DNA of 33,933 nt from an uncultured Nitrospiraceae bacterium (GCA_964532335.1 CAZHHV010000001.1:3327-37259); one strand, 5' to 3'. Positions 15,732 to 33,933 are shown, counted from the stretch's first letter. Numbers and translations: made by a program. The notes: generated from the sequence alone by a model not told the origin.

Positions 15732-15743
15732 TGGAAATACTTT

Positions 15744-17633: not shown

Positions 17634-17652
17634 TTCCTTAAATTTTCCTCGC

Positions 17653-17723: not shown

Positions 17724-17740
17724 AAAACTAAAAACTGTAT

Positions 17741-18931: not shown

Positions 18932-18938
18932 AGTTTTT

Positions 18939-18990: not shown

Positions 18991-18994
18991 TTAG

Positions 18995-19528
18995 TTATTC
19001 CTGCCATTCAAACTCTTTAAATCTCTTTGCCCTGTCAAGAACTGCCTTAAACCCTGACCATTCCTTCTCAGTCCCCTTCAGCGGATAATCCTTTCTCAGT
19101 GGATGGCCCTCCCAGTCCTCAGGCATAAGGACTCTCCTGAGATCCGGATTACCTTTAAAAATAATCCCGAACATGTCATAGCATTCCCTTTCATGCCAGT
19201 TTGCGCCGGCCCATACAGCAGTAACAGAATCAATCTCAAGACTGCTCTCAGGCACCTCTGCCTTTAACCTTATTGCATGACAGCGCTTTATAGAATAAAG
19301 ATGATAGACAACCTCAAACCTCTTTTCATTTCTCCCCTGATAGTCCACACCGCATACATCAACAAGATAGTCAAAACAAAGGTCAGAATCGTCATGGAGA
19401 TACCTGCATATTTCAAGGATTCTGTCTTTCTTTAATGTGACAGCGGCCTGCTCCCTGAATTCCTTTACCTCAAGGACTTCATCCGGAAACTTATCTTTAA
19501 TCTTACTCGCTATCTCTAAAGGTTCCAT
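18995..19528 (-). CDS. nuoC: NADH-quinone oxidoreductase subunit C
   Basis: It belongs to the 30 kDa subunit family (ANWHERECYDMFGIIFKGNPDLRR) and is not fused to nuoD. Confidence 0.93.
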   Translation of the reverse strand: MEPLEIASKIKDKFPDEVLEVKEFREQAAVTLKKDRILEICRYLHDDSDLCFDYLVDVCGVDYQGRNEKRFEVVYHLYSIKRCHAIRLKAEVPESSLEIDSVTAVWAGANWHERECYDMFGIIFKGNPDLRRVLMPEDWEGHPLRKDYPLKGTEKEWSGFKAVLDRAKRFKEFEWQE

Positions 19529-19536
19529 GTTCTTAG

Positions 19537-19602
19537 TGCAGTAGCTCAGCAGCGCAGTAGCGCAGTAGTATCCTTACTGCTGCTCTGTTGCTCTGCTGCT
19601 CT
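19537..19602. repeat. Two-armed octamer tandem-repeat hairpin, nuoC-nuoB junction
   Basis: The left arm is tgcagtag ctcagcag cgcagtag cgcagtag. The loop is tatcct. The right arm is (t)tactgctg ctctgttg ctctgctg ctct, which is partly complementary. Confidence 0.7.
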
Positions 19603-19606
19603 ATTT

Positions 19607-20119
19607 TTACCTCCACCTGCTCCATCTGAAATGCTCGCCTTTTATCTTTTCCTGAAGCTTTATTATCCCTTCAAGCAGAGTCTCAGGCCTTGGAGGACAG
19701 CCCGGTATATAAACATCCACAGGCAGGAAACTGTCGCATCCCTGCACGGTGCTGTATGTATTGAATATGCCTCCTGAACATGCGCAGCTCCCCATTGAAA
19801 TAACATATCTTGGTTCCGGCATTTGGTCATAGACCCTTCTCACAATCTCAGACATCTTCTTCGTTACAGTGCCTGCGACAATCATAAGGTCCGCCTGTCG
19901 TGGAGAGCCTCTGAAGATAACCCCCATCCTGTCCAGGTCATAGTGTGACGATCCCGTCGTCATCATTTCAATGGCGCAGCATGCAAGCCCGAAGGTCACG
20001 GGCCATAAGGACGAGCTTCTTCCCCAGTTGATGAGCTTGTCCATTGAGGTGATAATGATATTGGGCGACAGTATTTTTGTGCCTTTTTCAACCTCAACAA
20101 GATTAACCGCTGTGTCCAT
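19607..20119 (-). CDS. nuoB: NADH-quinone oxidoreductase subunit B (N2 cluster)
   Basis: It belongs to the PSST family ([11 protein letters not shown]...GSCACSGG...CPPRPE). Confidence 0.95.
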
Positions 20120-20142
20120 TAATATATACCTTACCCCTTTTT

Positions 20143-20226
20143 TTGCGTTTATTGCGTTATAGCGTTATTGCGTTCATTGTTTTCATTATTTTACGCTACA
20201 ACGCTATAACGCTTCACGCCATAACG
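20143..20226. repeat. Two-armed octamer tandem-repeat hairpin, nuoB-nuoA junction
   Basis: The left arm carries GCGTT every 8-9 nt (at 20145, 20154, 20162, 20170). The right arm carries ACGC every 8 nt (at 20193, 20201, 20209, 20217). There is a perfect 13 bp pairing of gcgttatagcgtt (20154-20166) with aacgctataacgc (20200-20212). Confidence 0.8.
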
Positions 20227-20231
20227 ATTTT

Positions 20232-20603
20232 TCAGTCCCATTTAAATGCCTCCTTTTTCCATGCATAAACATAGCCGACAAAAAGTATCACTATAAAAAT
20301 AACCATCTCAATAAATGCGTATAGTCCAATCCTGTCAAATACAACAGCCCAGGGATAAAGGAAAACAGCCTCAACGTCAAAGATAACAAAGAGCATGGCG
20401 ATAATATAGAATTTAACAGAAAATCTGTATCGCGGCTCTCCGACAGGCAGGTTGCCTGATTCATAAGGCATAAGTTTTTCAGGGTATGGCCTTTTCAGTC
20501 TGAGGAGTTCACCGATTAATAAGGCGCCCATTCCGAAGGCCGTTGCGACCATCAAAAATATAAGAACAGGCAAATAATCCGAAGGCAAATAAGTTCCGGG
20601 CAT
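20232..20603 (-). CDS. nuoA: NADH-quinone oxidoreductase subunit A
   Basis: It is 123 aa with 3 TM segments of the ND3 family (YESGNLPVGEPRYRFSVKFYIIAMLFVIFDVE) and is the first gene of the operon. Confidence 0.93.
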   Translation of the reverse strand: MPGTYLPSDYLPVLIFLMVATAFGMGALLIGELLRLKRPYPEKLMPYESGNLPVGEPRYRFSVKFYIIAMLFVIFDVEAVFLYPWAVVFDRIGLYAFIEMVIFIVILFVGYVYAWKKEAFKWD

Positions 20604-20752: not shown

Positions 20753-21748
20753 ATGATTGTAAAAAAATCTCTGCATTCATTGACCGGGAAGCTTATCATT
20801 GCCATAGGCACTCTTATGGTAGTAGTGAGCGCTGTCTTCTGGTATTTCCTGATACAACGGCAGGAGAAAGAACTTCTTGGCAATGCTGTAAAGTACGGTT
20901 CATCCTTTCTTAACCATGTAAAAGAGAGCACTCGCCATGATATGCTTGCCTTCCAACCACCTCTGACCCAGCAGACTCTTGAAGTATTAGGCTCTGGAGA
21001 GGGAGTCATCAATGTCAGGATATTAGATGCCAAAGGCAGAATTGCTTATTCATCAATAAAAGAAAAGAAAGGAGTCTTGCTTGATAAAAATGAAATGCCA
21101 TGCATCTCATGCCATTCTAAACCTCTGGAAAGAAGAGAGATGCCATTATGGGCTGTTAACAGAGGAAAAGAAGGCTATAGGATTCTGACTATTGTGCGGC
21201 CGATTCATAATGAACCTGCATGCTATACCTCTTCCTGCCATATTCATCCTAAGGAACAGCAGATTCTTGGGTTTGTGAAGGCAGACCTTTCATTATCTAT
21301 TCTGGATGAAACACTGAAAAAACAGAAGATAGCCATTACAGCCTTTCTCATTGGTTTTATCTGTTTATTGTCAGTAGTCCTCTGTACGATTCTATGGAAG
21401 ATTGTGTCTGTCCCTTTAAGTATGCTTACTCATGGCATGAAACGAGTGGCTGCAGGCGAACTCGATTATGTAGTGGAGATAAAAACAAAGGATGAGATTG
21501 GAGATCTTGCAAGGGCGTTTAATGCGATGACCGCAGATCTTTCAATAGCTAAAAAAGAGCTGATTGAATGGGGTACTACGCTCGAAAAAAAGGTTGAGGA
21601 GAAGACTGAAGACATAAGAAGGGCACAATCACAGCTCATCCATTCAGAAAAACTCGCTTCATTGGGAAGGATGGCAGCAGGCGTTGCCCACGAAATAAAC
21701 AGCCCGCTTACAGGCATAGTCACCTTTAGTCATCTCTTGCTTAAGTGA
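20753..21748 (+). CDS. Sensor histidine kinase, N-terminal part (TM1, periplasmic CXXCH/CX4CH domain, TM2, HAMP, first DHp helix with H-box), ending at an in-frame TGA
   Basis: TM segments lie at about residues 12-34 and 192-216. CISCH is at 21101-21115 and CYTSSCH at 21221-21241. A HAMP-like region ([13 protein letters not shown]) and the H-box [17 protein letters not shown] are present. Confidence 0.8.
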
Positions 21749-22333
21749 TTTCCAGAAGGCAGTCAGGAAAAGGAAGACATAAATATAATTATTGAGCAGG
21801 CAAATAGATGCTCTAATATCATAAAGGGGCTTCTTGGATTTGCCAGGGCAACATCAACAGATAAGACCCTTACAAGCATAAATGATGTTGTGCTAAGCGC
21901 TCTAAATATGGTAAGGCATAAGGCAGACTTTTTCAATATAAAGATTGTCTTAAATCTTGATGAGACTCTGCCGCCTGTGATGGCAAATGCATCCCAGCTC
22001 CAACAGGTATTTTTAAATATGATTATAAATGCAGCAGATGTAATGGAAAGCGTAGGGATATTGACCATTGCCACACGAAGGCAGACGAAAGACGGAATGC
22101 CCTTTACAGAGGTAGAATTTAGAGATACAGGACAGGGCATATCTGAGGAGAACATGTCAAAGATATTTGAACCATTCTTTACAACAAAACCAGTCGGGAA
22201 AGGCACAGGTCTTGGTCTTGCTGTAAGCCATGGTATCATTCAGGACCATGGAGGCAAGATACTGGTGAGAAGCAAATTAGGAGAAGGAACAAGTTTCTTT
22301 GTAAGATTTCCAGCATATGAGGGTAAAGTATGA
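21749..22333 (+). CDS. Same histidine kinase, C-terminal part (second DHp helix plus HATPase_c with N, G1, G2 boxes), in the same frame directly after the TGA
   Basis: The frame (mod 3) is the same as that of 20753-21748. The translation continues FPEGSQEKEDINIIIEQANRCSNIIKGLLGFAR..., with N box QVFLNMIINAADV, G1 DTGQGI and G2 GKGTGLGLAVS. There is no credible independent start; the first in-frame start codon is a GTG at 21890. The stop overlaps the next gene (ATGA). Confidence 0.75.
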   Translation, partial: FPEGSQEKEDINIIIEQANRCSNIIKGLLGFARATSTDKTLTSINDVVLSALNMVRHKADFFNIKIVLNLDETLPPVMANASQLQQVFLNMIINAADVMESVGILTIATRRQTKDGMPFTEVEFRDTGQGISEENMSKIFEPFFTTKPVGKGTGLGLAVSHGIIQDHGGKILVRSKLGEGTSFFVRFPAYEGKV

Positions 22334-22707
22334 GCAAAGGAAAGATTCTTGTTATAGATGATGAAGACATAGTTCTTATAAGTTGTAAGAGGGCGCTTGA
22401 GCCTGAAGGTTATGATGTAAAAACAGTCAAAAGCGGAGTGGAAGGCTTGAAGACTGCTGAGAATGAGGATTTCGATATTGTGATGACAGACCTGAAGATG
22501 CCTGACGTGGATGGCATAGAGGTTTTACGGATTATCAAAGAAAGAAAACCTGCCGTTGAAGTTGTTATCATGACAGGCTATCAAACTGTAGAGACAGCTG
22601 TTAAGGCTATAAAGCTCGGCGCATTTGATTATATTGAAAAACCGTTCACCCCTGAACAGATAATCTCTGTGATAAAGAATGCCATTGCTCATGAATCAAA
22701 AATGTAA
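22330..22707 (+). CDS. Single-domain response regulator (CheY-like receiver)
   Basis: It has DD at the N-terminus, the phospho-acceptor motif MTDLKMPDVDG, MTGY and EKPFTPE, and no output domain. It is translationally coupled to the kinase. Confidence 0.9.
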   Translation: MSKGKILVIDDEDIVLISCKRALEPEGYDVKTVKSGVEGLKTAENEDFDIVMTDLKMPDVDGIEVLRIIKERKPAVEVVIMTGYQTVETAVKAIKLGAFDYIEKPFTPEQIISVIKNAIAHESKM

Positions 22708-22719
22708 CCTGAGGTATAG

Positions 22720-22800
22720 ATGAATAGGACTAAAGTCCTCGTGATAGATAATGAAGATATTGTAAGGGCAGGATATTGTGGATTTAGTTCAGAAAGTTAA
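22720..22800 (+). pseudogene. Decayed receiver-domain remnant (26 codons)
   Basis: It translates to MNRTKVLVIDNEDIVRAGYCGFSSES*. The first 15 residues parallel the N-termini of the three intact receivers (KILVIDDEDIV...), after which the frame terminates. Confidence 0.4.
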
Positions 22801-22832
22801 TGTAGTATGTAACGCAGAAAGGAGGCATAATC

Positions 22833-23606
22833 ATGGGGGAAAAAGGGAAAATATTGGTGCTGGATGATGACCCTGTTGTTACTCTGAGCTGTAAAAGGAT
22901 TTTAGGTGCAGAAGGTTACAACATCATAACAGTAGACAGAGGCGAAGACGCAATTAAAAAGGTCTCCAATGAGGAATTTGACCTCCTGATATCTGATATA
23001 AGACTGCCTGATGTTAGCGGAATTACTGTTTTAAAAGAATCAAAGATTATCCAGCCAAAACTTGACGTTGTCATAATTACAGGTTATCCCACATTAGAGG
23101 ATGCCAAGGAGTCTGTGAGGCTCGGCGCGCTCGAGTTTATCGAAAAGCCCTTTACTCCCGAGTTTATGGTAAATGTTGCCAAAAAAGTATTTGACAGCAG
23201 GGGATGGATATTAAGGAAGGCGTTTATAGACGATTTCAGAAATGATATCGTTTCACTGAGGGATACTGAAAACCCGGTGATATTTTATAAGGAAGGAACA
23301 TGGGCAAGACCGCTGAAAAATGAAATATGGGAGATCGGGTGCGATGTAAGATACTGGCTGTTAGCAGGCCAACTCACATATATTGAGCTTTCTGAAAAGA
23401 TTGATATGCTTATAGCAGGGGAGCCGTTTGGCAAAATCTTATCAAGCACAGGACAGACCGAGAACCTTATTTCACCAATAACAGGCAGGGTTAAAGAGAT
23501 CAACATTAATGCTAATACTGCTATGAGCGCACTTATAAGGGATAACCTCAGTGAGGGGTGGTTGCTCTGGCTTGCGAGGATTGAACTGATAACAACATTG
23601 CCTTAA
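22833..23606 (+). CDS. Response-regulator receiver fused to a glycine-cleavage-H-like (lipoyl-fold) domain lacking the lipoyl lysine
   Basis: The REC domain has DDD, ISDIRLPDVSG (D55), ITGY and EKPFTPE. The C-terminal roughly 105 aa, FYKEGTWARP..EIGCDVRYWLLAGQLTYIEL...ISPITGRVKEIN...SEGWLLWLA, align by eye to GcvH (YtkeHeW..vGit..aq..lGdivfveLp...sPvsGevvevN...GWl.ki). The SD is AGGAGG. Confidence 0.8.
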   Translation: MGEKGKILVLDDDPVVTLSCKRILGAEGYNIITVDRGEDAIKKVSNEEFDLLISDIRLPDVSGITVLKESKIIQPKLDVVIITGYPTLEDAKESVRLGALEFIEKPFTPEFMVNVAKKVFDSRGWILRKAFIDDFRNDIVSLRDTENPVIFYKEGTWARPLKNEIWEIGCDVRYWLLAGQLTYIELSEKIDMLIAGEPFGKILSSTGQTENLISPITGRVKEININANTAMSALIRDNLSEGWLLWLARIELITTLP

Positions 23607-23663
23607 CCCTGTTAGAGAACTTCCTCTAACGGGATAAAAATTTGACAAGCGAAGGAGAAACTT

Positions 23664-24497
23664 ATGTTTAAAATCTTAAAAAAGGAAGAGCTATCAGAAA
23701 GCATAACCCTATTTGATATTGATGCGAAAGATATTGCAAAAAAGGCAAAGCCAGGCAATTTTATTGTTCTTAAGATTCATGAGGAGGGAGAGAGGATACC
23801 TTTAACTATTGCTGATTTTGATAGGGAAAAAGGAACCATAACTACTGTATTCCAGAAGGTTGGAAAGTCAACCTATCACCTTGGAGCATTAAATGAAGGT
23901 GATTTTATAACTGATGTTATAGGCCCTCTCGGTATTCCTTCCCATATAGAAAATTTTGGAAAGGTTGTCTGTATAGGTGGTGGAGTTGGAATTGCGCCTA
24001 TTTACCCGATAACAAAGGCATTAAAAGAGGCAGGTAATATAATAATTTCTATCATAGGCGCAAGGACAAAGTCACTCCTTTTCTGGGAAGAAAAAATGCG
24101 CAAGGTATCAGATGAACTAATTATTACGACAGATGATGGCTCTTACGGCAGAAAGGCAGTGGTAACTATTCCATTGGAAGAACTTCTGAAGGAGGGCAAT
24201 ATAAATTTAGTAGTCGCTATCGGCCCTGCTATTATGATGAAATTTGCCTGTAAGACAACAGAAAAATACAATGTAAAAACTATAGTTAGTTTAAATTCAA
24301 TCATGATTGATGCAACAGGGATGTGCGGCGGCTGTAGAGTAGGGGTAGGAGGGGAGACAAAGTTTTGCTGTGTTGACGGCCCTGAATTTGATGGACATAA
24401 GGTTGATTTTGATCTGCTTATGGAAAGACAGAAGATGTATCTTGATGAGGAAAGGTTAGCCATGCAAAGGTATAGAGAAAAAATGGGGGTGAAATGA
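23664..24497 (+). CDS. nfnA: NADH-dependent reduced ferredoxin:NADP+ oxidoreductase subunit A (SudB/PyrK-like FAD/[2Fe-2S] protein)
   Basis: It is near-collinear with the Thermotoga NfnA sequence as I recall it (MFKIL.K.EL...KPGNF..L.IHE.GERIPLT.AD.D.EKGTIT...GMCG.CRV.VGGE.KF.CVDGPEFD.H.VD). The SD is AAGGAG. Confidence 0.85.
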   Translation: MFKILKKEELSESITLFDIDAKDIAKKAKPGNFIVLKIHEEGERIPLTIADFDREKGTITTVFQKVGKSTYHLGALNEGDFITDVIGPLGIPSHIENFGKVVCIGGGVGIAPIYPITKALKEAGNIIISIIGARTKSLLFWEEKMRKVSDELIITTDDGSYGRKAVVTIPLEELLKEGNINLVVAIGPAIMMKFACKTTEKYNVKTIVSLNSIMIDATGMCGGCRVGVGGETKFCCVDGPEFDGHKVDFDLLMERQKMYLDEERLAMQRYREKMGVK

Positions 24498-25945
24498 GCA
24501 TGGAGGAAAAAGAGGAGAAAAAAGAGGAAAAAAAACCAAAAAAGAGAGTAAAGATGAGGGAACAGGACCCTCTGGTGAGGGCGAGGAATTTTGATGAGGT
24601 TCCTTATGGATACACCCCGGATGATGCAGTTGAGGAGGCATCAAGATGCCTGCAGTGCAAGAAACCTGCCTGTAGAGAAGGGTGCCCTGTAGAGATAGAT
24701 ATACCGCCATTTATACAGCTTATCACCAAGCATGATTTCATTGGCGCTGCAAGAAATATCCGTGAAAAAAACAGCCTTCCTGCTGTTTGTGGAAGGGTAT
24801 GTCCACAGGAGATTCAATGTGAAGCCTTATGTATCTTAGGGAAAAAGGCAGAGTCTGTTGCCATAGGCAACCTTGAGCGATTTGCAGCAGACTATGACAG
24901 GGTTCATGGAAAGTTTGAGATGCCTGAGATGGCAGAGCCAAATGGCAGAAAGGTTGCTATTATCGGCTCAGGTCCTGCCGGATTGACAGCAGCAGGCGAC
25001 CTCAGAAAAAAGGGTTATGAGGTTGCTGTTTTTGAGGCGCTCCATGAACTGGGTGGTGTTCTTGTCTATGGCATCCCTGAGTTCAGACTTCCCAAGAAGA
25101 TTGTCAAGGCTGAAATATCATATCTTGAAAGGATAGGGGTAAGGTTTCAAACTAATGCAGTGATTGGAAAGCTCTATACAGTTGATGAACTATTGAACAG
25201 CCACGGATATGATGCCTGCTATATTGGAATAGGCGCAGGGTTGCCTATGTTTATGGGAATACCAGGAGAAAACCTAAACGGTATTTACTCTGCGAATGAA
25301 TTTTTAACAAGGGCAAATCTAATGAAGGCATATCTTTTCCCTGAGTATGATACACCGATAAAGAGAGGCAAAAAGGTTGCTGTATTCGGCGGCGGCAATG
25401 TCGCTATGGATGCTGCAAGGGTGGCCCTCAGACTTGGTGCAGATAAGGTCTATCTTATATACAGGCGTTCTGAGGCTGAGATGCCGGCAAGAAAGGCAGA
25501 AGTTCATCATGCACATGAGGAGGGAATAGAATTCTTGCTATTAACAAATCCAACAAGATTTATTGATGACGGCAAGGGGAATGTCTGTGGGGTTGAATGT
25601 ATAAAGATGGAATTAGGAGAGCCTGACGAATCCGGCAGAAGGAAACCGATTCCTATTAAAGGCAGTGAATTTCAGATTGAGATAGATGTTGCAATACCTG
25701 CACTCGGAACAAGGGCAAATCCAATTTTAACAAAAACCGTGCCTGATTTAAAATTAAACAAGAGGGGGTATATTGTAGCTGAAGAGGAAACAGGCATGAC
25801 CTCAAAACCAGGCGTCTTTGCAGGCGGAGATATAGTTACAGGCTCTGCAACGGTTATCCTGGCTATGGGCGCAGGAAGAAAGGCAGGAAGGGCGATTAAT
25901 GAATATATAAAATGGAAATACTGGAACTTTAGCATGAGTAAATGA
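24494..25945 (+). CDS. nfnB: NADH-dependent reduced ferredoxin:NADP+ oxidoreductase subunit B (GltD/SudA-like)
   Basis: The N-terminal motif NFDEVPYGYTPDDAVEEASRCLQCKKPAC..GCPV is present, along with a 2x[4Fe-4S] region and the dinucleotide folds KVAIIGSGPAGL and VAVFGGGNVAMD. It overlaps the nfnA stop (ATGA). Confidence 0.85.
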   Translation: MSMEEKEEKKEEKKPKKRVKMREQDPLVRARNFDEVPYGYTPDDAVEEASRCLQCKKPACREGCPVEIDIPPFIQLITKHDFIGAARNIREKNSLPAVCGRVCPQEIQCEALCILGKKAESVAIGNLERFAADYDRVHGKFEMPEMAEPNGRKVAIIGSGPAGLTAAGDLRKKGYEVAVFEALHELGGVLVYGIPEFRLPKKIVKAEISYLERIGVRFQTNAVIGKLYTVDELLNSHGYDACYIGIGAGLPMFMGIPGENLNGIYSANEFLTRANLMKAYLFPEYDTPIKRGKKVAVFGGGNVAMDAARVALRLGADKVYLIYRRSEAEMPARKAEVHHAHEEGIEFLLLTNPTRFIDDGKGNVCGVECIKMELGEPDESGRRKPIPIKGSEFQIEIDVAIPALGTRANPILTKTVPDLKLNKRGYIVAEEETGMTSKPGVFAGGDIVTGSATVILAMGAGRKAGRAINEYIKWKYWNFSMSK

Positions 25946-25975
25946 GTAATACAACTTTCGCAGATGATTTTTGGT

Positions 25976-26049
25976 TGTCATTCCGTGCTTGACACGGAAT
26001 CCAGTTCCACAATATATCCCTCTGGATTCCCGCTTTCGCGGGAATGACA
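25976..26049. repeat. GTCATTCC...GGAATGACA double-hairpin element downstream of nfnB (nested inside a perfect 12 bp outer IR, 25952-25963 / 26069-26080)
   Basis: The sequence is tgtcattccGTGcttgaCACggaatccag, then a spacer, then ctggattccCGCtttcGCGggaatgaca. The outer pair is caactttcgcag / ctgcgaaagttg. Confidence 0.85.
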
Positions 26050-26119
26050 GAAGGCGTTTTTAAAAGTGCTGCGAAAGTTGACTTATTGACTCAATTAAAA
26101 GAAGGGAGGAGTTATTTTT

Positions 26120-26989
26120 ATGGCAAATGCTACCAAAATTCTTGTTGTGGACGATGAAGCTATAGTAATAAGAAGCGCTGAAAGGGTTCTTAAGGCTGAA
26201 GGTTATAATGTTGAAGGGGTTCTTAGTGGAAGAGAGGCTATGCTCAAGATGGAACAGAGCAGTTATGACCTTGTCTTAACAGACCTTAAGATGCCAGAGG
26301 TGGATGGAATCACATTGATAAGATGGATGCGGAAATTCCGACCTTCTATCGGTATTGTAATCATTACAGGCTATCCATCACAGGAGACAATTAAAGAAGC
26401 CCTTGAATTAGGCATTATTGATTATGTCCCAAAACCCTTTACACCGGCAGTTCTGACAGATGTAACACACAGGGCATTAGAATGGCTGAAAGGAAAGGCA
26501 TACATTGAAGAAAAGCCTAAAGAGGAATTCCCTCCTTCTATGCTCAATGAACTGGACAGAGTCATAAAAGAACATAAAAATAAAGCCGGCAGCCTCATAC
26601 CTGTGCTTCAGCGGGCTCAGGAGATTGTAGGCTACCTTCCATCGTTTATACAGAAGCGAGTTGCAAAGGGACTGAATATTCCTGCAGCAGAGGTGCATAG
26701 CGTTGTCTCATTCTATTCATTCTTTACTATGAAACCCAGAGGGGAACACCTCATCAGGCTCTGTCTCGGGACTGCCTGTTATGCAAAAAAATCAGAGGCA
26801 ATTCTGGAGAAATTCATGTCAGAATTAGGTGTAAATGTTGAGGAGGTTACAGAGGATAAAAAGTTTTCACTTGAGACTGTCCGATGCCTTGGCGCATGCG
26901 GTCTCGCACCAGTGGCAGTAGTAGACGAAGATACCTATGGTTTACTGCATCCAAAGAAGGTAAGAGAGGTTATTAATGTATATAGATAA
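26120..26989 (+). CDS. Response-regulator receiver fused to a NuoE/HydC-like thioredoxin-fold [2Fe-2S] subunit
   Basis: The REC domain spans residues 1-125 (DD11-12, D55 in LTDLKMPEVDG, ITGY, K105 in PKPFTP). Residues 140-289 are NuoE-like (LIPVLQRAQE..GYLP) with C215-x4-C220-x35-C256-x3-C260. The SD is GGGAGGA. Confidence 0.85.
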   Translation: MANATKILVVDDEAIVIRSAERVLKAEGYNVEGVLSGREAMLKMEQSSYDLVLTDLKMPEVDGITLIRWMRKFRPSIGIVIITGYPSQETIKEALELGIIDYVPKPFTPAVLTDVTHRALEWLKGKAYIEEKPKEEFPPSMLNELDRVIKEHKNKAGSLIPVLQRAQEIVGYLPSFIQKRVAKGLNIPAAEVHSVVSFYSFFTMKPRGEHLIRLCLGTACYAKKSEAILEKFMSELGVNVEEVTEDKKFSLETVRCLGACGLAPVAVVDEDTYGLLHPKKVREVINVYR

Positions 26990-27003
26990 AGAGGAGGTAA
27001 ACT

Positions 27004-27387
27004 ATGCCAAGACTAACTATAGATGATTTAAGAAAGATTAAAGAACAACATAAGGCAACCTTTACCTTAAGGGAAGGCGGCTACAGGGCAAAAGTTACCG
27101 TCCATATGGGGACATGCGGCATAGCTGCCGGCGCAAGAAATATAATGACCGTTTTAATGGACGAAATAGCACAGGTCAAGGTTGAAGATGTGATTGTTAC
27201 TACATCAGGGTGTGCGGGACTTTGCGCCCGTGAACCCATGGCCACAGTAGAGATAGTAAATAATCCTCCGGTCAGATACATTGACCTGACAGAGGAAAAG
27301 ATTAAAGAGATATTTAAGGAACATATTATGGGTGGTAATGCAGTAGAAAAATATGCATTGGCTATTGGAAGTGAGACGACATATTAA
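27004..27387 (+). CDS. HndB-like small thioredoxin-fold [2Fe-2S] ferredoxin
   Basis: It is 127 aa with VTVHMGTCGIAAGA...TSGCAGLCAREP, the pattern seen in HndB / HydB-N-terminal-type domains. The SD is AGGAGG. Confidence 0.8.
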   Translation: MPRLTIDDLRKIKEQHKATFTLREGGYRAKVTVHMGTCGIAAGARNIMTVLMDEIAQVKVEDVIVTTSGCAGLCAREPMATVEIVNNPPVRYIDLTEEKIKEIFKEHIMGGNAVEKYALAIGSETTY

Positions 27388-27399
27388 CCCTTCCTCTTT

Positions 27400-27420
27400 C
27401 CTCCCCTTACTAAGGGGAGG
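27400..27420. repeat. CCTCCCCTTA-C-TAAGGGGAGG palindrome between the HndB-like and NuoF-GltD genes
   Basis: It is a perfect 10+1+10 palindrome embedded in a C/T-rich then G/A-rich context (27388-27440). It has the same CCCCTT...AAGGGG core as the element inside the gene at 3721-3762. Confidence 0.7.
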
Positions 27421-27446
27421 ATGGGTGGGGTAGAGGAGAGAAATTG

Positions 27447-30400
27447 ATGGAAAAGTTTCGTGCAAATGTGATGCTCTGTGCAGGGACAGGTTGTATTGCG
27501 AGCGGAACTATGAAGGTTAAGTCCGCCCTCGTGGAAGAATTGAGAAAGAGGGGGCTTGAAAATGAGATACAGGTTATCATGACAGGCTGTAATGGCTTCT
27601 GTGCACAAGGACCTATTGTGTCTGTCTACCCTGATAATATCTTTTACCAGGCATTAAAGGTAGAGGATGTCCCTCATCTGGTAGAAGAACATTTCTTAAA
27701 GGGCAGACCTGTAAAGAGATTGATGTATCAGGAACCAGACAAGAAAATAACTGTTCCAGCTATGGGTGAGATACCTTTCTTTAAACATCAGGTGCTTCGT
27801 GTCCTGCGAAATAAAGGACTCATTGATCCTGAAAAGATTGAAGAATACATTGCCAGGGATGGTTATCTTGCTGCTGCAAAGGCGCTCACTGAGATGACTC
27901 CTGAAGAAATAATAAAAGTTGTAAAAGACTCGGGTGTAAGGGGCAGAGGCGGCGCAGGGTTTCCGACGGGTTTAAAATGGGAATTTGCCTCAAAGTCAAA
28001 GGCAGACCAGAAATTTATGCTCTGCAATGGCGATGAGGGGGACCCTGGTGCGTTCATGGACAGGTCTGTTATGGAGTCTGACCCGCATTCAGTAATTGAA
28101 GGTATGATTATAGGCGCTAGTGCCATAGGCGCAAGCAAAGGCGTTATCTATGTAAGGGCGGAATATCCTCTTGCTGTAAAACGTCTTCAACTTGCTATTG
28201 ATCAGTGTTATGATGCAGGACTGCTCGGGAAAAACATCCTTGGCTCAGATTTTAATTTTGACCTCAGCATATACCTTGGTGCAGGCGCCTTTGTCTGTGG
28301 CGAAGAAACAGCCCTCATGCGTTCTATTGAAGGAAAACGCGGGATGCCAATACCAAGGCCGCCCTTCCCTGCACAAAAAGGGCTCTGGGATAAACCTTCA
28401 GTCCTGAATAATGTTGAAACCTTAGCCCAGATTGCTCCGATAATATTAAATGGCGCTGAATGGTATAAAAGCCTCGGGACCGAGAAAAGCACAGGAACAA
28501 AGGTATTTGCCCTTACAGGCGCTATAAGCAATGTAGGTCTGGTTGAAGTTCCTATGGGAATTCCCCTGAGGACAATTATATATGATATCGGAGGCGGGAT
28601 AAGAAAGGGGAAATTCAAGGCTGTACAGCTTGGAGGTCCGTCAGGCGGCTGTATTCCTGAAAGCCTTCTCGACACCCCTGTCACGTATGAAGATATTGTA
28701 GCAACAGGCGCCATTGTCGGCTCTGGCGGCATGGTCGTTCTGGATGACAGCAACTGCATGGTCAGTTTAGCTAGATTCTTCCTCGGCTTTACAACAGAGG
28801 AATCCTGCGGAAAGTGTCCTCCGTGCAGGGTAGGGACAAAGATTTTATTAGATATGCTTACGGATATCACAGAAGGCAGGGGAAAAGAGACTGATGTCGA
28901 GACGCTAGAGGACCTCAGTAGAGATATTATTGCCACATCTCTATGCGGCCTTGGACAGACAGCCCCGAATCCTATCCTTACTACAATTAAATATTTCAAA
29001 GATGAGTATGAAACTCATATCAAATATAAGAGATGTGAGGCAATGGTCTGCAAGGAGATAATATCATCTCCCTGTCAGCATACCTGCCCTATTGGCACAG
29101 AAGTGCCTGTCTATGCAGCCTTAATCGCCCAAAGACGCTTTGATGAGGCAGTTCAGGTTATTAGAAAAGACAATCCACTGGCAAGTGTCTGCGGCCGTGT
29201 CTGTACTCACCCCTGCGAATCCAATTGCAAATCAGGAGAGGCGGGAAAACCCCTTGCAGTAAGGGCACTGAAGCGATTTGCTACTGATTACGGGCTGCAA
29301 ACAGGCTACAAATTACCGATTAAACGCAAAGAGCCAAAAAATAAAAAGGTTGCCATTATAGGCTCAGGGCCAGGAGGGCTCACAGCAGGTTGCTTCCTTG
29401 CCATAGAAGGTTATGATGTTACAATCTTTGAGGCAAAGTCTGTTTTAGGTGGTATGCTGAGAGTAGCCATACCTACATATCGTTTGCCAAGAGAGCTGCT
29501 GGATGCTGATATTGACGCCATTAAAGAGGCAGGGGTTAAATTCCAAACAAATACAGCATTGGGGAAAGAAATCTCTATTAACAGCCTTTTCAATGATGGG
29601 TATGAAGCTATTTTTATCTCAGTCGGCGCCCATAAGCCGATGGACCTGGGCATCCCTGGTGAGGATAGCGAAGGGGTCATAGGCTCTTTGAAATTTCTTG
29701 AGGCAGTAAATCTGGGCAAAGATATAAAGGTTGGCAAAAGGATTGGTATTATCGGTGGGGGGAATGCTGCAGTTGACGCTGCCAGGGCTGCACATCGCCT
29801 TCCAAATACAGAGAAGGTTACACTTATCTACAGAAGGACAAGGGCAGAGATGCCGGCATTTAAAGAGGAAGTGGATGCTGCAATTGAAGAGGGTATTGAT
29901 ATACAGTTCCTGAGCGCACCAACAAGGGTATTAACACAAAATGGAAAACTTGCCGGCATTGAGGCTATCCGTATGGAATTAGGAGAACCAGATGCAAGCG
30001 GAAGAAGAAAACCTGTCCCTATTAGCGGTTCTGAATTTATCATAGAATTAGATACATTAATAAGGGCAATCGGGGAAGCTCCTGATATTACATTCCTTGG
30101 AGGTCAGGGACTTGAGATTTCTAAAAGGAATACCCTTGTAGTTGACCCTGAGACTTTAGCCACTAAAAGAAAAGGGGTCTTTGCCGGTGGAGATGCGGTG
30201 ACCGGTCCAAAAACCGTTATACATGCTATTGCAGCCGGTAAGTTAGCCGCTGAATCCATTGATAAATATCTCAGGGGGGAAAGCATAGAAAGGGAATACA
30301 ATGTAACCCGACCATCCATGTATATTGAACCGGTTGAGCTGACCGATGAGGAAATAGAGAGCGCTGCCCGGCCTGAGATGTCCCATCTGCCTATAAAAGA

Positions 30401-30587
30401 TAGGGTTAAGAACTTTAAAGAGGTGGAATTAGGTTTCACTGAAGAGACGGCAGTTAAAGAGGCAAGGAGATGCCTAAGATGTGAATTAGGAACGATGGAA
30501 GGCACACAAGCAATGCAGGAAATGCGAGAAAAGAAAAAAATCGAAAAAGAAAAATTACAGAAGGCAGGAGGAGTCAAAAATGATTGA
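27447..30587 (+). CDS. Fusion protein: N-terminal [2Fe-2S] domain plus NuoF/HydB-like FMN/NADH module plus GltD/NfnB-like Fe-S/FAD/NAD(P)H module
   Basis: Counting from the TTG at 27444: CAGTGC...GCNGFCAQGP lies in residues 10-57. GRGGAGFPTGLKW, CNGDEGDPGAF and ESCGKCPPCRVG lie in residues 165-462. From about residue 530 the GltD-like region begins, with CQHTCPIG...VCGRVCTHPCESNC, KVAIIGSGPGGL, IGIIGGGNAAVD and GVFAGGDAV. The ATG at 27447 has the SD GAGGAGAG upstream. Confidence 0.85.
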   Translation: MEKFRANVMLCAGTGCIASGTMKVKSALVEELRKRGLENEIQVIMTGCNGFCAQGPIVSVYPDNIFYQALKVEDVPHLVEEHFLKGRPVKRLMYQEPDKKITVPAMGEIPFFKHQVLRVLRNKGLIDPEKIEEYIARDGYLAAAKALTEMTPEEIIKVVKDSGVRGRGGAGFPTGLKWEFASKSKADQKFMLCNGDEGDPGAFMDRSVMESDPHSVIEGMIIGASAIGASKGVIYVRAEYPLAVKRLQLAIDQCYDAGLLGKNILGSDFNFDLSIYLGAGAFVCGEETALMRSIEGKRGMPIPRPPFPAQKGLWDKPSVLNNVETLAQIAPIILNGAEWYKSLGTEKSTGTKVFALTGAISNVGLVEVPMGIPLRTIIYDIGGGIRKGKFKAVQLGGPSGGCIPESLLDTPVTYEDIVATGAIVGSGGMVVLDDSNCMVSLARFFLGFTTEESCGKCPPCRVGTKILLDMLTDITEGRGKETDVETLEDLSRDIIATSLCGLGQTAPNPILTTIKYFKDEYETHIKYKRCEAMVCKEIISSPCQHTCPIGTEVPVYAALIAQRRFDEAVQVIRKDNPLASVCGRVCTHPCESNCKSGEAGKPLAVRALKRFATDYGLQTGYKLPIKRKEPKNKKVAIIGSGPGGLTAGCFLAIEGYDVTIFEAKSVLGGMLRVAIPTYRLPRELLDADIDAIKEAGVKFQTNTALGKEISINSLFNDGYEAIFISVGAHKPMDLGIPGEDSEGVIGSLKFLEAVNLGKDIKVGKRIGIIGGGNAAVDAARAAHRLPNTEKVTLIYRRTRAEMPAFKEEVDAAIEEGIDIQFLSAPTRVLTQNGKLAGIEAIRMELGEPDASGRRKPVPISGSEFIIELDTLIRAIGEAPDITFLGGQGLEISKRNTLVVDPETLATKRKGVFAGGDAVTGPKTVIHAIAAGKLAAESIDKYLRGESIEREYNVTRPSMYIEPVELTDEEIESAARPEMSHLPIKDRVKNFKEVELGFTEETAVKEARRCLRCELGTMEGTQAMQEMREKKKIEKEKLQKAGGVKND

Positions 30588-33042
30588 GCTTACAATCAAT
30601 GACAAAAAAATAACTGCAGAGGAAGGCTCCACAATCCTCCAAACCGCAACAAAAAATGGTATTAAGATACCAAATCTATGCTTTGACAAAAGACTCAGGC
30701 CTTATGGCGGATGCAGGCTTTGTGTTGTTGAGGTAGAGAAACAGCCGAGGCTTTTTGCTGCATGCTCAACCCCTGTTGCTCCTGGAATGGTTGTTAAAAC
30801 CGATACTCCTAAACTCAGAAAAGCCCGCCAGACAGTGCTCGAACTTCTTCTTGTGCATCATCCGCTGGACTGCCCAATATGCGATAAGGCAGGCGAATGC
30901 GACCTTCAGGACCTCGCATATGAATTTGGCAAACCTGAAGGACGTTTCATAAGACACAGAAAAGAAACCCCGCCTGATGTCAGAGGACCACTAATAGAGC
31001 TTACTTCAAACAGATGCATTCTATGTGGCAAATGTGTACGAATCTGTAGTGAATATCAAGGAAGAGGGGCATTGGGACTGATAGGAAGGGGATTTCCTAC
31101 TGTTGTTCAGCCCGCATTCGGTGAAATCCTTGAATGCGACTACTGCGGCCAGTGTATTGATATATGCCCGACAGGCGCGCTTTTGAGTAAGCCGTTCAAG
31201 TTTCAGGCACGTGCATGGTTTCTCGATGAAAAAGACACAATCTGTCCTTTCTGCGGATGCGGCTGCACTCTTACTTTGGGTATAAGAGAAGGGAAGATAT
31301 TAAGATCAAGAGGCCAGGAAGACAATGGAAGGAGCGAAGGCAACCTGTGCGGCAGGGGCAGGTTTGGATTTGATTACATATACAATGAGAGCCGTCTTAA
31401 AACGCCTTTGATAAGAAAAGAAGGTTCACTGGTTCCTGCAACATGGGATGAGGCATTATCATATATAAGCGATAGCCTGAATTTTATTATCAATTCTTAC
31501 GGAAAAACATCAGTAGGCGCTCTCGGCTCTCACAGATGTACGAATGAAGACAACTTTATGCTGAAAAAGTTCATGATGAACGTTGTTGGTTCAAACAACT
31601 TTGACTCTGCTGCCGCATTCGGATATTCAAAGGTTCAGCAGGCTCTCGATAAGGCATTCGGATTAAAGACCCATCCGATTAACCTGAAATCACCATTGGG
31701 CAAGGAAGTTATTCTGATAATTGAATCGGATATCAGCATTACACATCCTGTATTCGGACTTAATATCCTTCAGGCAAAAAGAGAAGGCTCAAGGCTTATT
31801 GTCGCTGATTCAAGGGAGACAAAACTCACAAGGCATAGTACGACTCAACTAAAAATGAGACAGGGCGCTTCTGTTGCGCTGCTCAATGGAATAATGAAGA
31901 TAATAATAGATAAGGGTCTTTTCAACAGGGAGATAGTTTCCAAGACCCCGGGGTTTTCAGAATTCGAAAAGGGCCTTAATGATTACATCTCTGAAGATGT
32001 CTCAAGGATTACAGGGATTTCCGTAGAGGAACTCGTATCTGCTGCAGAGACTATTGCAAGGGCTAAAAGCAGAATGATCTCATTCACAATCAATTCGACA
32101 GAGAACACAAAAGGAGCAGATCTGGTTTTTGCAGCTTCGAATCTTGTAATCCTCTTAGGCGATGAGACAGATACATTGCAGATCCCTGCTGAATATGCAA
32201 ACACATTTGGAGCTTACAAAATGGGAATAAGGCCGGATGCAGATGGAAAGAATCTATTTGATATGCTTTATGAATCGGGCTCACTCCATGCCCTTTATAT
32301 AATGGGCGAGGATCCTGTTTCAGCATTTCCTTACAATTCAAAGATTATAAGGACACTTAAATCGCTCGAACTGCTTGTTGTTCAGGATATTGCCCTGACA
32401 GAGACAGCCAAGCTTGCGCATGTTGTGCTTCCTGCATCAAGCTGGGCAGAGAAAGACGGCACATTCATTAATGCCGAGGGGGTTGCGCAGACATTGAAAA
32501 AGGCAATAGACGCCCCCGGCCAATCACTGCCAGACTGGCAGATCCTGAGAAATCTCTCGTTATCAATGGGGACTGATATTGGGATAAGGAGTATAGAAGA
32601 CATCTCAAGGGAGATAAACTCGTCAATCGTCAATCGTCAATCGTCAATCGTCAATCGTCAATCGTTTAATCCTGTGTTATATACACGCGGAGAAGAGCCT
32701 GATACAGAATATCCATTGTCACTTGTCACAAGAGATATCCTTCAGCATTCAGGAACGATGACAACACGCTCAAAGGCGCTTGACCTTGTTGTTCCCGAAC
32801 CTTTTCTTGAGATTAATGATGAGGATGCCAAAAAATTCGGCATATCTGACAACAGCCATGTTAAGGTTTCATCAAGGAGAGGCACAGTATATCTGAAGGC
32901 AAAGGTTTCTGATGTTATACCTTCTGGAACTGTTTTCACTTCAGTTCATTTTCCTCACGGCCGTGTTAATGCGCTCACAAATCTCTCAGAAAATGGCACA
33001 GCAACCCCAGACGCTGTAAGAGTAGAAAGGGTTATAATATAA
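30580..33042 (+). CDS. NuoG-like / formate-dehydrogenase-alpha-like Fe-S molybdopterin-fold subunit lacking the catalytic Cys/Sec-His
   Basis: It has an N-terminal [2Fe-2S] region (CRLCVVEV), HPLDCPICDKAGEC, 2x[4Fe-4S] motifs, and the motif CPFCGCGCTL...LCGRGRFG. NNFDSAAAFGYS occupies the position of NNvD.CARvUH in FDH. The SD is AGGAGG and the start overlaps the upstream stop. Confidence 0.85.
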   Translation: MIELTINDKKITAEEGSTILQTATKNGIKIPNLCFDKRLRPYGGCRLCVVEVEKQPRLFAACSTPVAPGMVVKTDTPKLRKARQTVLELLLVHHPLDCPICDKAGECDLQDLAYEFGKPEGRFIRHRKETPPDVRGPLIELTSNRCILCGKCVRICSEYQGRGALGLIGRGFPTVVQPAFGEILECDYCGQCIDICPTGALLSKPFKFQARAWFLDEKDTICPFCGCGCTLTLGIREGKILRSRGQEDNGRSEGNLCGRGRFGFDYIYNESRLKTPLIRKEGSLVPATWDEALSYISDSLNFIINSYGKTSVGALGSHRCTNEDNFMLKKFMMNVVGSNNFDSAAAFGYSKVQQALDKAFGLKTHPINLKSPLGKEVILIIESDISITHPVFGLNILQAKREGSRLIVADSRETKLTRHSTTQLKMRQGASVALLNGIMKIIIDKGLFNREIVSKTPGFSEFEKGLNDYISEDVSRITGISVEELVSAAETIARAKSRMISFTINSTENTKGADLVFAASNLVILLGDETDTLQIPAEYANTFGAYKMGIRPDADGKNLFDMLYESGSLHALYIMGEDPVSAFPYNSKIIRTLKSLELLVVQDIALTETAKLAHVVLPASSWAEKDGTFINAEGVAQTLKKAIDAPGQSLPDWQILRNLSLSMGTDIGIRSIEDISREINSSIVNRQSSIVNRQSFNPVLYTRGEEPDTEYPLSLVTRDILQHSGTMTTRSKALDLVVPEPFLEINDEDAKKFGISDNSHVKVSSRRGTVYLKAKVSDVIPSGTVFTSVHFPHGRVNALTNLSENGTATPDAVRVERVII
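32621..32665 (+). repeat. Perfect heptanucleotide tandem repeat (CGTCAAT)x6 plus CGT inside the NuoG-like gene
   Basis: Read directly from the sequence: six exact 7 nt units followed by cgt. It translates as SSIVNRQSSIVNRQS, a 7 aa periodicity arising from 21 nt. Confidence 0.95.
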
Positions 33043-33062
33043 CCGTTTAAAAATTTTTAAGC

Positions 33063-33401
33063 ATGACATTAAACGAAATCAAAAGAATACTCAACGCAGT
33101 GGCGCTCTCAAAGATAGAAGATATGAATCTCAATATTGTAAGGGCTTACTGTGCCGATCTCATGAGTGATGTGCTTGCATTTTCTATAACAAATTCCCTT
33201 TTGATAACACATTTAACAAATACACAGGTAATTCGCACTGCTGAGATTGCGGATGTCAAAACAATAGTATTTGTTCAGAGTAAAAGGCCTGATATAGAAA
33301 CAATCGCATTAGCAGACACAAAGAATATCCCTCTGCTTGTAACCGATCTTTCGATGCATGAGACATGCGGGAAACTTTACGAGAAAGGACTAAGGAGTTA
33401 G
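33063..33401 (+). CDS. DRTGG-domain small regulatory protein
   Basis: It is 112 aa. DLMSDVLAF...LLITHLTNTQVIRTAEIADVKTIVFVQSKRP...NIPLLVTDLSMHETCGKLY resembles the DRTGG domain as found in HydABC-type gene clusters (from memory). Confidence 0.65.
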   Translation: MTLNEIKRILNAVALSKIEDMNLNIVRAYCADLMSDVLAFSITNSLLITHLTNTQVIRTAEIADVKTIVFVQSKRPDIETIALADTKNIPLLVTDLSMHETCGKLYEKGLRS

Positions 33402-33415
33402 CTTAATACTAAAAA

Positions 33416-33892
33416 ATGAGTAACAAGGTCATTGAAGGAGTTTTTTTTCTTACGGGCAAGGATTTCTCTAATGCGGGCGCTGCCTCAAGCAATTTGAAGG
33501 GAATATTAGAAGGCATGAGTGTTCAGCCAGATATTATAAGAAGGGCTGCTATAGCAGCATTTGAGGCAGAGATGAACACGATTATATACTCTGTGGCAGG
33601 AATGATGAATTATTGCATAACTCCTGAAATAATACGAGTTGTCCTTAAGGATGTCGGTCAGGGCATCGAAAATATTGAACTTGCCATGAAAGAGGGATAT
33701 TCGACAGCCCCGGACTACATAAGAGAAATGGGGTTTGGCTCAGGTATGGGCCTTCCGAATATCAAAAGGAATGCGGATGAGATGAACATCAATTCCACGG
33801 TCGGTGAAGGCACAACGCTTGAATTTATTATATACCTGAACAAGAAAGAAGAATTAAAAGGAGCGCGCTATGAAACTGCAGGAAATTGTTAA
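33416..33892 (+). CDS. Small HATPase_c protein (RsbW/SpoIIAB-like anti-sigma kinase / histidine-kinase-like ATPase)
   Basis: N-box-like EAEMN, a G1-like DVGQGI and a G2-like GFGSGMGLPNIKRNAD...GTTLEF are present. There is no DHp or H-box. Confidence 0.7.
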   Translation: MSNKVIEGVFFLTGKDFSNAGAASSNLKGILEGMSVQPDIIRRAAIAAFEAEMNTIIYSVAGMMNYCITPEIIRVVLKDVGQGIENIELAMKEGYSTAPDYIREMGFGSGMGLPNIKRNADEMNINSTVGEGTTLEFIIYLNKKEELKGARYETAGNC

Positions 33893-33933
33893 TAGACTTT
33901 CCCTTGATGTAAAAACGCCTTCTCTGGATCTAA
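33870..33933 (+). CDS. 5' end of a further ORF (possibly another DRTGG/CBS-type regulator), truncated by the window edge
   Basis: An ATG at 33870 overlaps the end of the HATPase gene. Only 21 codons of translation (MKLQEIVNRLSLDVKTPSLDL) are visible. Confidence 0.3.
   Translation, partial: MKLQEIVNRLSLDVKTPSLDL

Follow-up and report, generated by a model that had tools for sequence, protein, structure and literature searches.

The window analysed here is a stretch of 33,933 nucleotides (nt) from an uncultured Nitrospiraceae bacterium (GCA_964532335.1 CAZHHV010000001.1:3327-37259). At 27447-30587 (+) it carries a gene for a protein of 1046 amino acids (aa), recognised from the open reading frame (ORF), Pfam matches, a homologue alignment and an AF2 (AlphaFold2) model as a fusion of a BfuB-type module with a GltD cassette (BfuB::GltD). 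Translation gave a single frame of 1046 codons with zero internal stops. The ATG is preceded by an AGGAGA Shine-Dalgarno sequence at a gap of 7 nt, and the end of the ORF, with its stop codon, shares 8 nt with the beginning of the BfuA gene that comes next. Pfam searches placed 2Fe-2S_thioredx at residues 5-81, Complex1_51K at 159-330 (E 6e-47), SLBB at 353-395, NADH_4Fe-4S at 441-524 (E 2e-32), Fer4_20 at 529-619 (E 1e-25) and Pyr_redox_2, with its two dinucleotide folds, at 633-931 (E 1e-33). The first-pass annotation of the window had described one polypeptide with a thioredoxin-like [2Fe-2S] domain, a NuoF core and a GltD-like unit, and this is borne out by the uninterrupted frame and the domain matches.

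A stop or frameshift near 29000-29050 was looked for and none was found; GC content is even across the junction of the two halves. The same fused ORF is present in independent assemblies at 84-96% identity (P0001-P0004; L001, L004), and more than 115 further full-length homologues, 57-75% identical, are among the matches listed. Split genes are thus ruled out by the open frame and uniform GC content, and an assembly artefact also by the recurrence of the fused ORF in other assemblies. In public annotation the fusion proteins are named 'NADH-quinone oxidoreductase subunit NuoF' only.

The N half (residues 1-535) is assigned by its matches to BfuB/HydB of the bifurcating type and not to respiratory NuoF. 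Among solved structures, every one of its top matches is the BfuB subunit of a bifurcating enzyme (7t2r_B, 7q4v_B, 8a6t_B, 9mqx_B, 9n5u_B, 8oh5_B, 9bov_B), and its relatives include HydB of A. woodii and T. kivui, BfuB of a tungsten aldehyde oxidoreductase and the NfnB/StnB subunits of T. sibiricus, S. ovata and C. saccharolyticus. In this half the fusion resembles the HydABC and NiFe-HydABCSL enzymes (A. mobile 7t2r, A. woodii 7q4v, T. kivui 8a6t, T. maritima 7p5h), with A. mobile NiFe-HydB the closest: 7t2r_B was matched by phmmer over residues 3-540 (E 5e-231), and its core is 66% identical to the N half over 422 aligned columns in Foldseek. The NCBIfam model TIGR01959 matched residues 128-525 (E 2e-146). 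Complex I NuoF reached about half the bits of the BfuB matches. The NuoF of complex I is about 420-450 aa long, has no extra domains and is encoded in a nuo operon with membrane subunits. A respiratory complex I subunit was ruled out, since complex I has a complete nuo operon elsewhere in the window, including a NuoF of 419 aa.

Conservation of the cofactor sites was counted in an alignment of 118 full-length fusion homologues. At the N-terminus, a thioredoxin-like domain (27459-27731, +) has the four ligands of the B5 [2Fe-2S] site, C11, C16, C48 and C52, each kept in 113-118 of the 118. In the NuoF core (27828-29021, +), located by TIGR01959 and its motifs, a NuoF-type site for flavin mononucleotide (FMN) and NADH is present, with the FMN loop GRGGAGFPTG and the NADH motif NGDEGDPGAF invariant or nearly so, and the B1 [4Fe-4S] ligands C454, C457, C460 and C500 are invariant. 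The same (near-)invariance holds in the C half for the flavin adenine dinucleotide (FAD) motif GSGPGG, the NADPH motif GGGNAAxDAAR with its YRR, and the eight Cys of both GltD [4Fe-4S] clusters. The cofactor motifs thus stood up to alignment, and the module content claimed earlier (two sites for nicotinamide nucleotides, two for flavins, and several Fe-S clusters) is confirmed by them.

The core is followed by a His/Cys hinge at 29016-29051 (+), a Zn or 'B2' site made up of H524, C530 and C535 together with C437. In alignment to 7t2r_B the residues C437, H524, C530 and C535 correspond to C438, H525, C531 and C536, and all are invariant in 118/118 homologues. The equivalent site of T. sibiricus consists of C437, H524, C529 and C534. 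It has been modelled in two ways, with a [2Fe-2S] cluster ('B2') or with a Zn hinge, and the hinge His is found in virtually all BfuB and is absent from non-bifurcating homologues (Schut et al. 2022).

What follows the hinge sets the fusion apart. HydB alignments to it end at residues 540-548. Past this point unfused orthologues read CKGCGACLRACP...CxxCRxCYxxCK and the fusion reads KEIISSPCQHTCP; the B3/B4 ferredoxin-like domain is marked by two CX2CX2CX3CP motifs, and no such motif occurs after C535 in the fusion. The GltD cassette starts at about residue 541 (nt 29067), within about 8 residues of the last hinge Cys. The boundary placed earlier at about nt 29031 (residue 529) was therefore approximately right, although the real junction comes after C535 (nt 29049-29051). 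Thus, the GltD cassette has replaced the ferredoxin-like B3/B4 domain of BfuB directly after the His/Cys3 hinge, where the HydABC and NiFe-HydABCSL enzymes have a C-terminal 2x[4Fe-4S] domain. Since B3/B4 is the ferredoxin-reducing arm in every solved Bfu enzyme, a predicted NADPH/FAD arm here holds the sequence position of the ferredoxin arm. Judged by the features of the Bfu family given by Schut et al. 2022, the window has the FMN/NADH site with B1, the hinge, B5, and an adjacent BfuC with a C1 cluster and NuoG-like BfuA; the C-terminal ferredoxin-like B3/B4 domain is absent.

The cassette itself (residues 541-1013; 29067-30485, +) is assigned, by its match to 9bov_A and its ligands, to the Stn/NfnABC kind of GltD and not to the NfnB kind. 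Its sequence is circularly permuted and provides for two [4Fe-4S] clusters (C543, C547, C582, C586, C590, C594, C1009, C1012; K609) as well as sites for FAD and NADPH. Among solved structures it is matched best by the GltD portions of NfnA from C. saccharolyticus and T. sibiricus and of StnC from S. ovata, the first over residues 102-567 of 9bov_A (E 5e-124), followed by NfnB of T. maritima and P. furiosus. The scores were 418 bits to C. saccharolyticus NfnA as against 344 bits to T. maritima NfnB. N-terminal residues 13-43 of T. maritima NfnB align to 983-1013 of the fusion, which reveals the permutation: the segment that opens canonical NfnB, 'F.EV..G.T.EEA..EA.RCL.C', sits at the end of the cassette (983-1013), and the order in the window's own NfnB confirms it. 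The ligand at the A7 position of the proximal cluster is K609, invariant in homologues and matching K170 of both C. saccharolyticus NfnA and StnC; the NfnB of the window has Glu ('NLERF') at this place and is only 46% identical to the C half. With NfnAB (T. maritima 4ylf, P. furiosus 5jca) the cassette shares the GltD fold, two [4Fe-4S] clusters, FAD and NADPH (E 2e-101; target-normalised TM-score 0.81), but it differs in the permuted segment order and the Lys for Glu ligand, and implies no NfnA-type partner. The earlier description of a GltD/NfnB-like unit with Fe-S centres and two dinucleotide folds holds for GltD and not for the NfnB kind.

In an AF2 model of the fusion protein, mean pLDDT (predicted local distance difference test) was 87 and pTM (predicted template-modelling score) 0.81, which suggests that the two halves are packed in a defined, fixed manner. 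A Foldseek structural comparison returned no PDB chain spanning both halves, the query-normalised TM-score being at most 0.49. The last 33 or so residues of the protein form a tail rich in Lys and Glu (nt 30486-30584). In some homologues (P0034, P0035, P0037, P0039, P0044, P0047) this tail has grown to 200-270 residues of E/K/P-rich low complexity with a repeated 'KAVIEIPEMK'.

The genes on either side supply candidate partners. Upstream, at 26120-26989 (+), lies a BfuC/HydC/NuoE-like [2Fe-2S] subunit (Pfam 2Fe-2S_thioredx, residues 146-288, E 7e-48) with an N-terminal receiver (Response_reg, residues 7-114, E 4e-28). The receiver is complete in its DD, phospho-acceptor D, T and K motifs, the cluster motif is Cx4C...Cx3C, and the receiver-BfuC fusion is kept in Nitrospirota operons. 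In solved Bfu enzymes movement of BfuC gates bifurcation, and a receiver on this subunit hints at possible phosphorylation control of a bifurcating enzyme. Between BfuC and the fusion, at 27004-27387 (+), is a gene for a small thioredoxin-like, HydD-like and probably accessory protein (2Fe-2S_thioredx, E 4e-4). Three of the usual four [2Fe-2S] Cys are present (C38, C70, C74), so it may carry no cluster or use another ligand. The gene is found in Nitrospirota operons and in some others.

Directly downstream, at 30580-33042 (+), BfuA is a NuoG/FdhA-like protein of 820 aa whose motifs provide for one [2Fe-2S] and four [4Fe-4S] clusters (Pfam Fer2_4, NADH-G_4Fe-4S_3, Fer4_Nqo3, Molybdop_Fe4S4, Molybdopterin, Molydop_binding); it contains no GltD part. 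Its best solved matches are formate dehydrogenase (FDH) alpha subunits (9wxb_B, 6tg9_A; E about 1e-115), and A. mobile HydA (7t2r_A) also matches (E 5e-67). Together with active FDHs that follow the same fusion in sister loci, these matches are what could make the four-gene module a formate dehydrogenase that depends on NAD(P)+ and in which the 820-aa subunit would be the catalytic Mo/W enzyme. The residues speak otherwise. The active-FDH motif R(V/L)CH(S/A) is replaced by 'AAFGYS', so that Cys/Sec-His (Sec, selenocysteine) has become Gly-Tyr, and PLRGQNNVQG by 'PAEYANTFG', RGQNNVQG having become AEYANTFG with loss of the catalytic Arg. The NCBIfam Fdh-alpha score, 472, is below its cut-off of 666, and the NuoG model passes its own. 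The FDH-like domain is thus predicted to be inactive as a formate dehydrogenase, as has been reported for that of StnC, and an enzyme of this kind is highly improbable here; an active formate dehydrogenase was ruled out on the missing Cys, His and Arg. The FdsABG enzymes (R. capsulatus 6tg9, C. necator 6vw7) have the same NuoE/F/G-type subunit set, and FdsA is the best solved match of BfuA. They differ in that the BfuA of the window lacks the catalytic Cys, His and Arg and its BfuB carries the bifurcating hinge and GltD. A hydrogenase was also ruled out, there being no H-cluster motifs in this BfuA and no hydrogenase genes downstream in the close relative L001. The HydABC and NiFe-HydABCSL systems thus differ from the present one in having a hydrogenase module, which is found neither in the window nor downstream in L001; the BfuA of the window resembles the inactive NiFe-HydA.

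To place the locus in a wider setting, the fusion was followed across genomes. It occurs in 41 loci besides the window, in metagenome-assembled genomes (MAGs) of about 17 phyla including one archaeon; the taxa include subsurface Nitrospirota, Planctomycetota, Omnitrophota, Aminicenantes and a Thermoplasmata archaeon. In every fused locus with its 5' flank present a NuoE-like gene lies at most about 1 kb upstream, and in all except L006 and L030 a BfuA-like gene is directly downstream. ORFs of the true Stn type, with GltD within BfuA, occur in L071, L074, L076 and L078.

The partner of the fusion varies. In 14 loci (L007, L008, L010, L013, L015, L016, L020, L026-L029, L033, L043, L063) the fusion is accompanied by a short BfuA (200-265 aa) and, after it, a conserved protein of 515-553 aa that carries a Glu_synthase FMN domain; in 7 loci the partner is an FDH alpha subunit with Cys-His and Arg. 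One further locus, L017, has an FDH alpha with TGA (Sec) at the active-site codon, and 3 loci have an [FeFe]-hydrogenase. A dead FDH-like BfuA is found in the window, L001, L002 and L003, and probably also in L004, where the contig ends. Since the partners vary, the fusion is a general module and does not by itself define a reaction. The first-pass annotation had proposed an NADH/NADPH/ferredoxin transhydrogenase from the module content; the modules are there, but the fusion alone does not imply that activity.

The most frequent of the related loci appear to encode an undescribed, glutamate-synthase-like enzyme linked to NuoEFG. The Glu_synthase-domain protein is 69-81% identical across phyla and has an N-terminal CxxCxxxCxxxC (e.g. 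L008:11862-13460, L013:4875-6452); no NCBIfam model names it. Glutamate dehydrogenase genes lie near it in L013 and L027, and a glutamine synthetase gene in L010. In L017 the FDH alpha gene (3182-5911) is split by a TGA at 4271-4273, exactly the Cys/Sec codon, which makes it a selenocysteine FDH.

Nine loci of close Nitrospirota relatives (L034, L036-L038, L040, L041, L044, L046, L057) have the same operon with an unfused BfuB. The gene order is shared with the window: receiver-GcvH-like, receiver-BfuC, small thioredoxin-like (HydD-like), BfuB, dead BfuA, DRTGG and kinase-like ATPase. In these operons BfuA is 54-80% identical to that of the window, and BfuB is 611-659 aa long and 72-81% identical to the N half, differing from the fusion in its canonical ferredoxin-like C-terminus. 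Sliding-window identities to the unfused L034/L044 and the fused L002/L003 change abruptly along the protein: 62-72% and 30-39% at residues 1-120, 75-85% and 50-52% at residues 441-520, and then 39% and 88-95% at residues 521-560. The breakpoint falls at residues 521-527 (nt ~29007-29027), within the hinge. The window's gene thus looks like a mosaic of an unfused Nitrospirota BfuB and an L002/L003-like C-terminus, recombined at the hinge. A neighbour-joining tree grouped the N half with unfused Nitrospirota BfuB at 73.5% bootstrap and gave monophyly of the fused sequences 8%; as this support is only moderate, the mosaic argument is carried by the sliding-window identities. Fused and unfused BfuB are interleaved in the tree, which implies that the two C-terminal modules were exchanged repeatedly. 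In one Nitrospiraceae MAG (L040:3367-12361) tandem-duplicated BfuB-BfuA pairs lie behind a single set of nfnAB, receiver-BfuC and small thioredoxin-like genes, and paralogous pairs of this kind could be the substrate for such a domain swap.

The operon opens at 22833-23606 (+) with a gene for a receiver plus GcvH-like domain protein (Pfam Response_reg E 7e-24, GCV_H E 8e-6), the first gene of the conserved Nitrospirota operon. Its orthologues, 64-83% identical, open the same operon in L001, L034, L036, L038, L041, L044 and L046. The lipoyl-lysine position of the GcvH-like domain is not conserved and the Lys is absent in the window ('SSTGQ'). In L042 (2303-3649) the short BfuA itself bears a fused GcvH domain (Pfam E 8.5e-17); GcvH-like domains are thus recurrently tied to the BfuB::GltD system.

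The next two genes are nfnA (23664-24497, +; NCBIfam PRK06222 E 4e-127, Pfam DHODB_Fe-S_bind), the small subunit of a canonical NfnAB, and nfnB (24494-25945, +; Pfam Fer4_20 E 4e-42, Pyr_redox_2), of the canonical unpermuted GltD type with an 'RCLQC' N-terminal segment and the Glu cluster ligand in 'NLERF'. The canonical nfnAB pair reported beside the fusion is therefore real, at 23664-25945. The features that define NfnAB (an unpermuted NfnB, the Glu ligand and an NfnA partner) are found in these two genes and not in the fusion. The pair adjoins the operon in the window, L001, L002, L003, L012 and L040, and nfnA alone does so in L054. This adjacency points to linkage rather than chance.

These neighbours bear on what the module acts upon. 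The fusion, with its dead BfuA, could be a dual NADH/NADPH module for an unrecognised partner that supplies a third substrate (NfnAB, the GcvH-like protein, or a GltB-like enzyme or hydrogenase encoded elsewhere) and docks on the dead BfuA domain or on GltD. Such a partner would agree with the variable catalytic partners that the fusion always has elsewhere (14 Glu_synthase, 8 Cys/Sec FDH and 3 [FeFe]-hydrogenase loci), and with the unfused orthologous Nitrospirota operons, which have no evident third substrate. It would also give a meaning to the adjacency of nfnAB in six loci (the window, L001, L002, L003, L012, L040) and to the GcvH-like domain encoded in the window operon and fused to BfuA in L042; the NiFe module of A. 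mobile docks on a similar inactive HydA, and 7t2r_A matches the BfuA of the window. However, downstream of the operon in L001 there are DRTGG, kinase-like, PHP and rhomboid genes only and no catalytic gene, the GcvH-like domain has no conserved lipoyl lysine, and NfnAB is already a complete enzyme alone. We regard such a partner as possible but rather doubtful.

Comparison with the Stn/NfnABC enzymes (S. ovata 8oh5, C. saccharolyticus 9bov, T. sibiricus 9n5u) shows both kinship and departure. The permuted GltD, the Lys-ligated proximal [4Fe-4S], FAD, the YRR-type NADPH site and a BfuA with an inactive FDH-like domain are common to both. In Stn/NfnABC, however, the cassette is inserted in BfuA/StnC after the [2Fe-2S] domain, on the mid-potential path; NADPH electrons run along the BfuA clusters to FMN, and ferredoxin is reduced via B3/B4 of BfuB. 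Here the cassette is at the C-terminus of BfuB, B3/B4 is lacking, the first Cys of the CGRVC motif is kept and BfuC bears a receiver domain. Acetogens have Stn and Nfn almost mutually exclusively, and in this too the window differs, canonical nfnAB adjoining the operon. The likeness to the Sporomusa-type Stn noted in the first-pass annotation thus holds for the kinship of the C half, the permutation, the Lys ligand and the inactive BfuA, but the protein is not a Stn with its parts fused. As the cassette replaces B3/B4 in BfuB, the wiring must differ from that of Stn. On its sequence the fusion is classed as a variant within the Bfu family, departing from one defining feature of Bfu and one of Stn/NfnABC.

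From these results, the fusion would be the NADH/FMN subunit of a soluble iron-sulfur flavoprotein complex of the Bfu family. It would probably assemble with the receiver-bearing BfuC (26120-26989) and the catalytically dead BfuA (30580-33042), and the small thioredoxin-like protein (27004-27387) may join them. Such a complex would link NAD(H) at FMN, NADP(H) at FAD and a low-potential one-electron carrier, most likely ferredoxin. The NADPH/FAD arm would be mounted on the hinge, in the place that usually belongs to the ferredoxin arm, as distinct from Stn, in which NADPH feeds the BfuA chain; the docking site of ferredoxin would then be either the cluster chain of BfuA or the distal cluster of GltD, whose ligands would be C543, C594, C1009 and C1012. 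We infer complex formation, substrates, the direction of electron flow and any bifurcation. The complex may well be an Nfn/Stn-like, ferredoxin-linked NADH/NADPH transhydrogenase that is wired differently, a tentative reading to which we give a nearly even chance. It is the most economical one because only NAD(H) and NADP(H) sites are recognisable, the bifurcation hallmarks are kept and the BfuA chain would end at the surface.

Several points weigh against this assignment. The ferredoxin-docking domain of every solved Bfu enzyme is missing from the fusion, so that a role for ferredoxin has to be assumed. Nor do the arm potentials of the Bfu model map simply onto the Nfn reaction once NADPH is placed on the hinge arm. 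The variable partners (glutamate-synthase-like, FDH, hydrogenase) may mark the fusion as a general NAD(P)H module. By analogy with acetogens, where Stn and Nfn nearly exclude each other, a second transhydrogenase beside nfnAB would be unexpected, and no biochemical or structural study of the BfuB::GltD architecture was found in the literature searched.

The missing domain also admits a simpler enzyme, a ferredoxin-independent and non-bifurcating NADH:NADP+ (or NADPH:NAD+) transhydrogenase in which electrons would pass between FMN and FAD via the Fe-S clusters and BfuA would be only a scaffold. B3/B4 is the sole experimentally located ferredoxin site of Bfu enzymes, and its absence would fit, as would a BfuA without catalytic site and two intact nucleotide sites. 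Yet the hallmarks of bifurcating BfuB (the hinge, the N-terminal [2Fe-2S] and a mobile-type BfuC) are strictly kept across the 118 homologues, the five conserved cluster motifs of BfuA would have no role, and an uncoupled enzyme beside NfnAB would be expected to dissipate the NADPH/NADH disequilibrium. This alternative therefore appears unlikely, and the differently wired, ferredoxin-linked transhydrogenase is retained as the preferred reading.

The mechanism of Bfu bifurcation is still debated, and to our knowledge no classical bifurcating flavin is involved in these enzymes. Current models have three fixed arms: NAD at FMN, a mid-potential substrate via BfuA, and ferredoxin via B3/B4. A natural and widespread swap of the ferredoxin arm for an NADPH/FAD arm would be a ready-made test of these assignments. 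In a broader and more speculative view, which we consider improbable, BfuB::GltD would be a widespread Bfu class in which NADP(H) via FAD has replaced ferredoxin on the gated hinge arm, and electrons would be split or merged among three parties: the NAD pool, the NADP pool and, reached via the BfuA or GltD clusters, a third one that could be ferredoxin, formate, H2 or a glutamate-synthase-like substrate. If so, either bifurcation would be ferredoxin-independent or the mid- and low-potential arms would be reversed, with the receiver on the mobile BfuC adding phosphorylation control. Given the 'NuoF'-only names, models of NADH/NADPH/ferredoxin balance in uncultured anaerobes probably miss an enzyme, and the NuoEFG-linked glutamate-synthase-like relatives are a second lead. 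No description of a GltD cassette on BfuB was found in the literature searched, which included the Bfu classification of Schut et al. 2022 and left subscription journals outside its coverage. The only trace is a rule of the HydDB classifier by which proteins that combine a GltD with a NuoF domain are excluded, which implies that such proteins have been seen before.

Two regulatory accessory genes follow BfuA. A weak match identifies a DRTGG-like small protein at 33063-33401 (+; Pfam DRTGG E 0.0016), kept downstream in L001, L006, L023, L034, L041 and others, and a histidine-kinase-like/anti-sigma-type ATPase is encoded at 33416-33892 (+; Pfam HATPase_c E 3e-5, NCBIfam spIIAB E 4e-12), kept beside the DRTGG gene across loci. 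In its HydD-like and kinase-like accessory genes the operon resembles that of the A. mobile hydrogenase, where similar genes do not encode components of the enzyme. A promoter and terminator scan of 21700-33933 gave counts at shuffle background, so that the operon was defined from gene spacing and synteny only. In the 59-nt spacer that separates the small thioredoxin-like gene from the fusion gene there is a perfect 10-nt inverted repeat at 27400-27420 (CCTCCCCTTA c TAAGGGGAGG) with no T-run after it, which may form a hairpin for mRNA stability or processing.

Ahead of the operon, a histidine kinase gene at 20753-22333 (HAMP, HisKA, HATPase_c) is broken by an in-frame TGA at 21746-21748 within HisKA; the TGA may mark a pseudogene, stem from a sequencing error or be read through. 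The kinase gene is followed by a stand-alone receiver gene (22330-22707). The complete 14-gene nuoA-N operon for complex I, at 5024-20603 (-), adjoins the Bfu-type operon and includes NuoE at 17169-17633, the 419-aa NuoF at 15744-17003 and NuoG at 12948-15620 with an inactive 'TARTGFAG' site.

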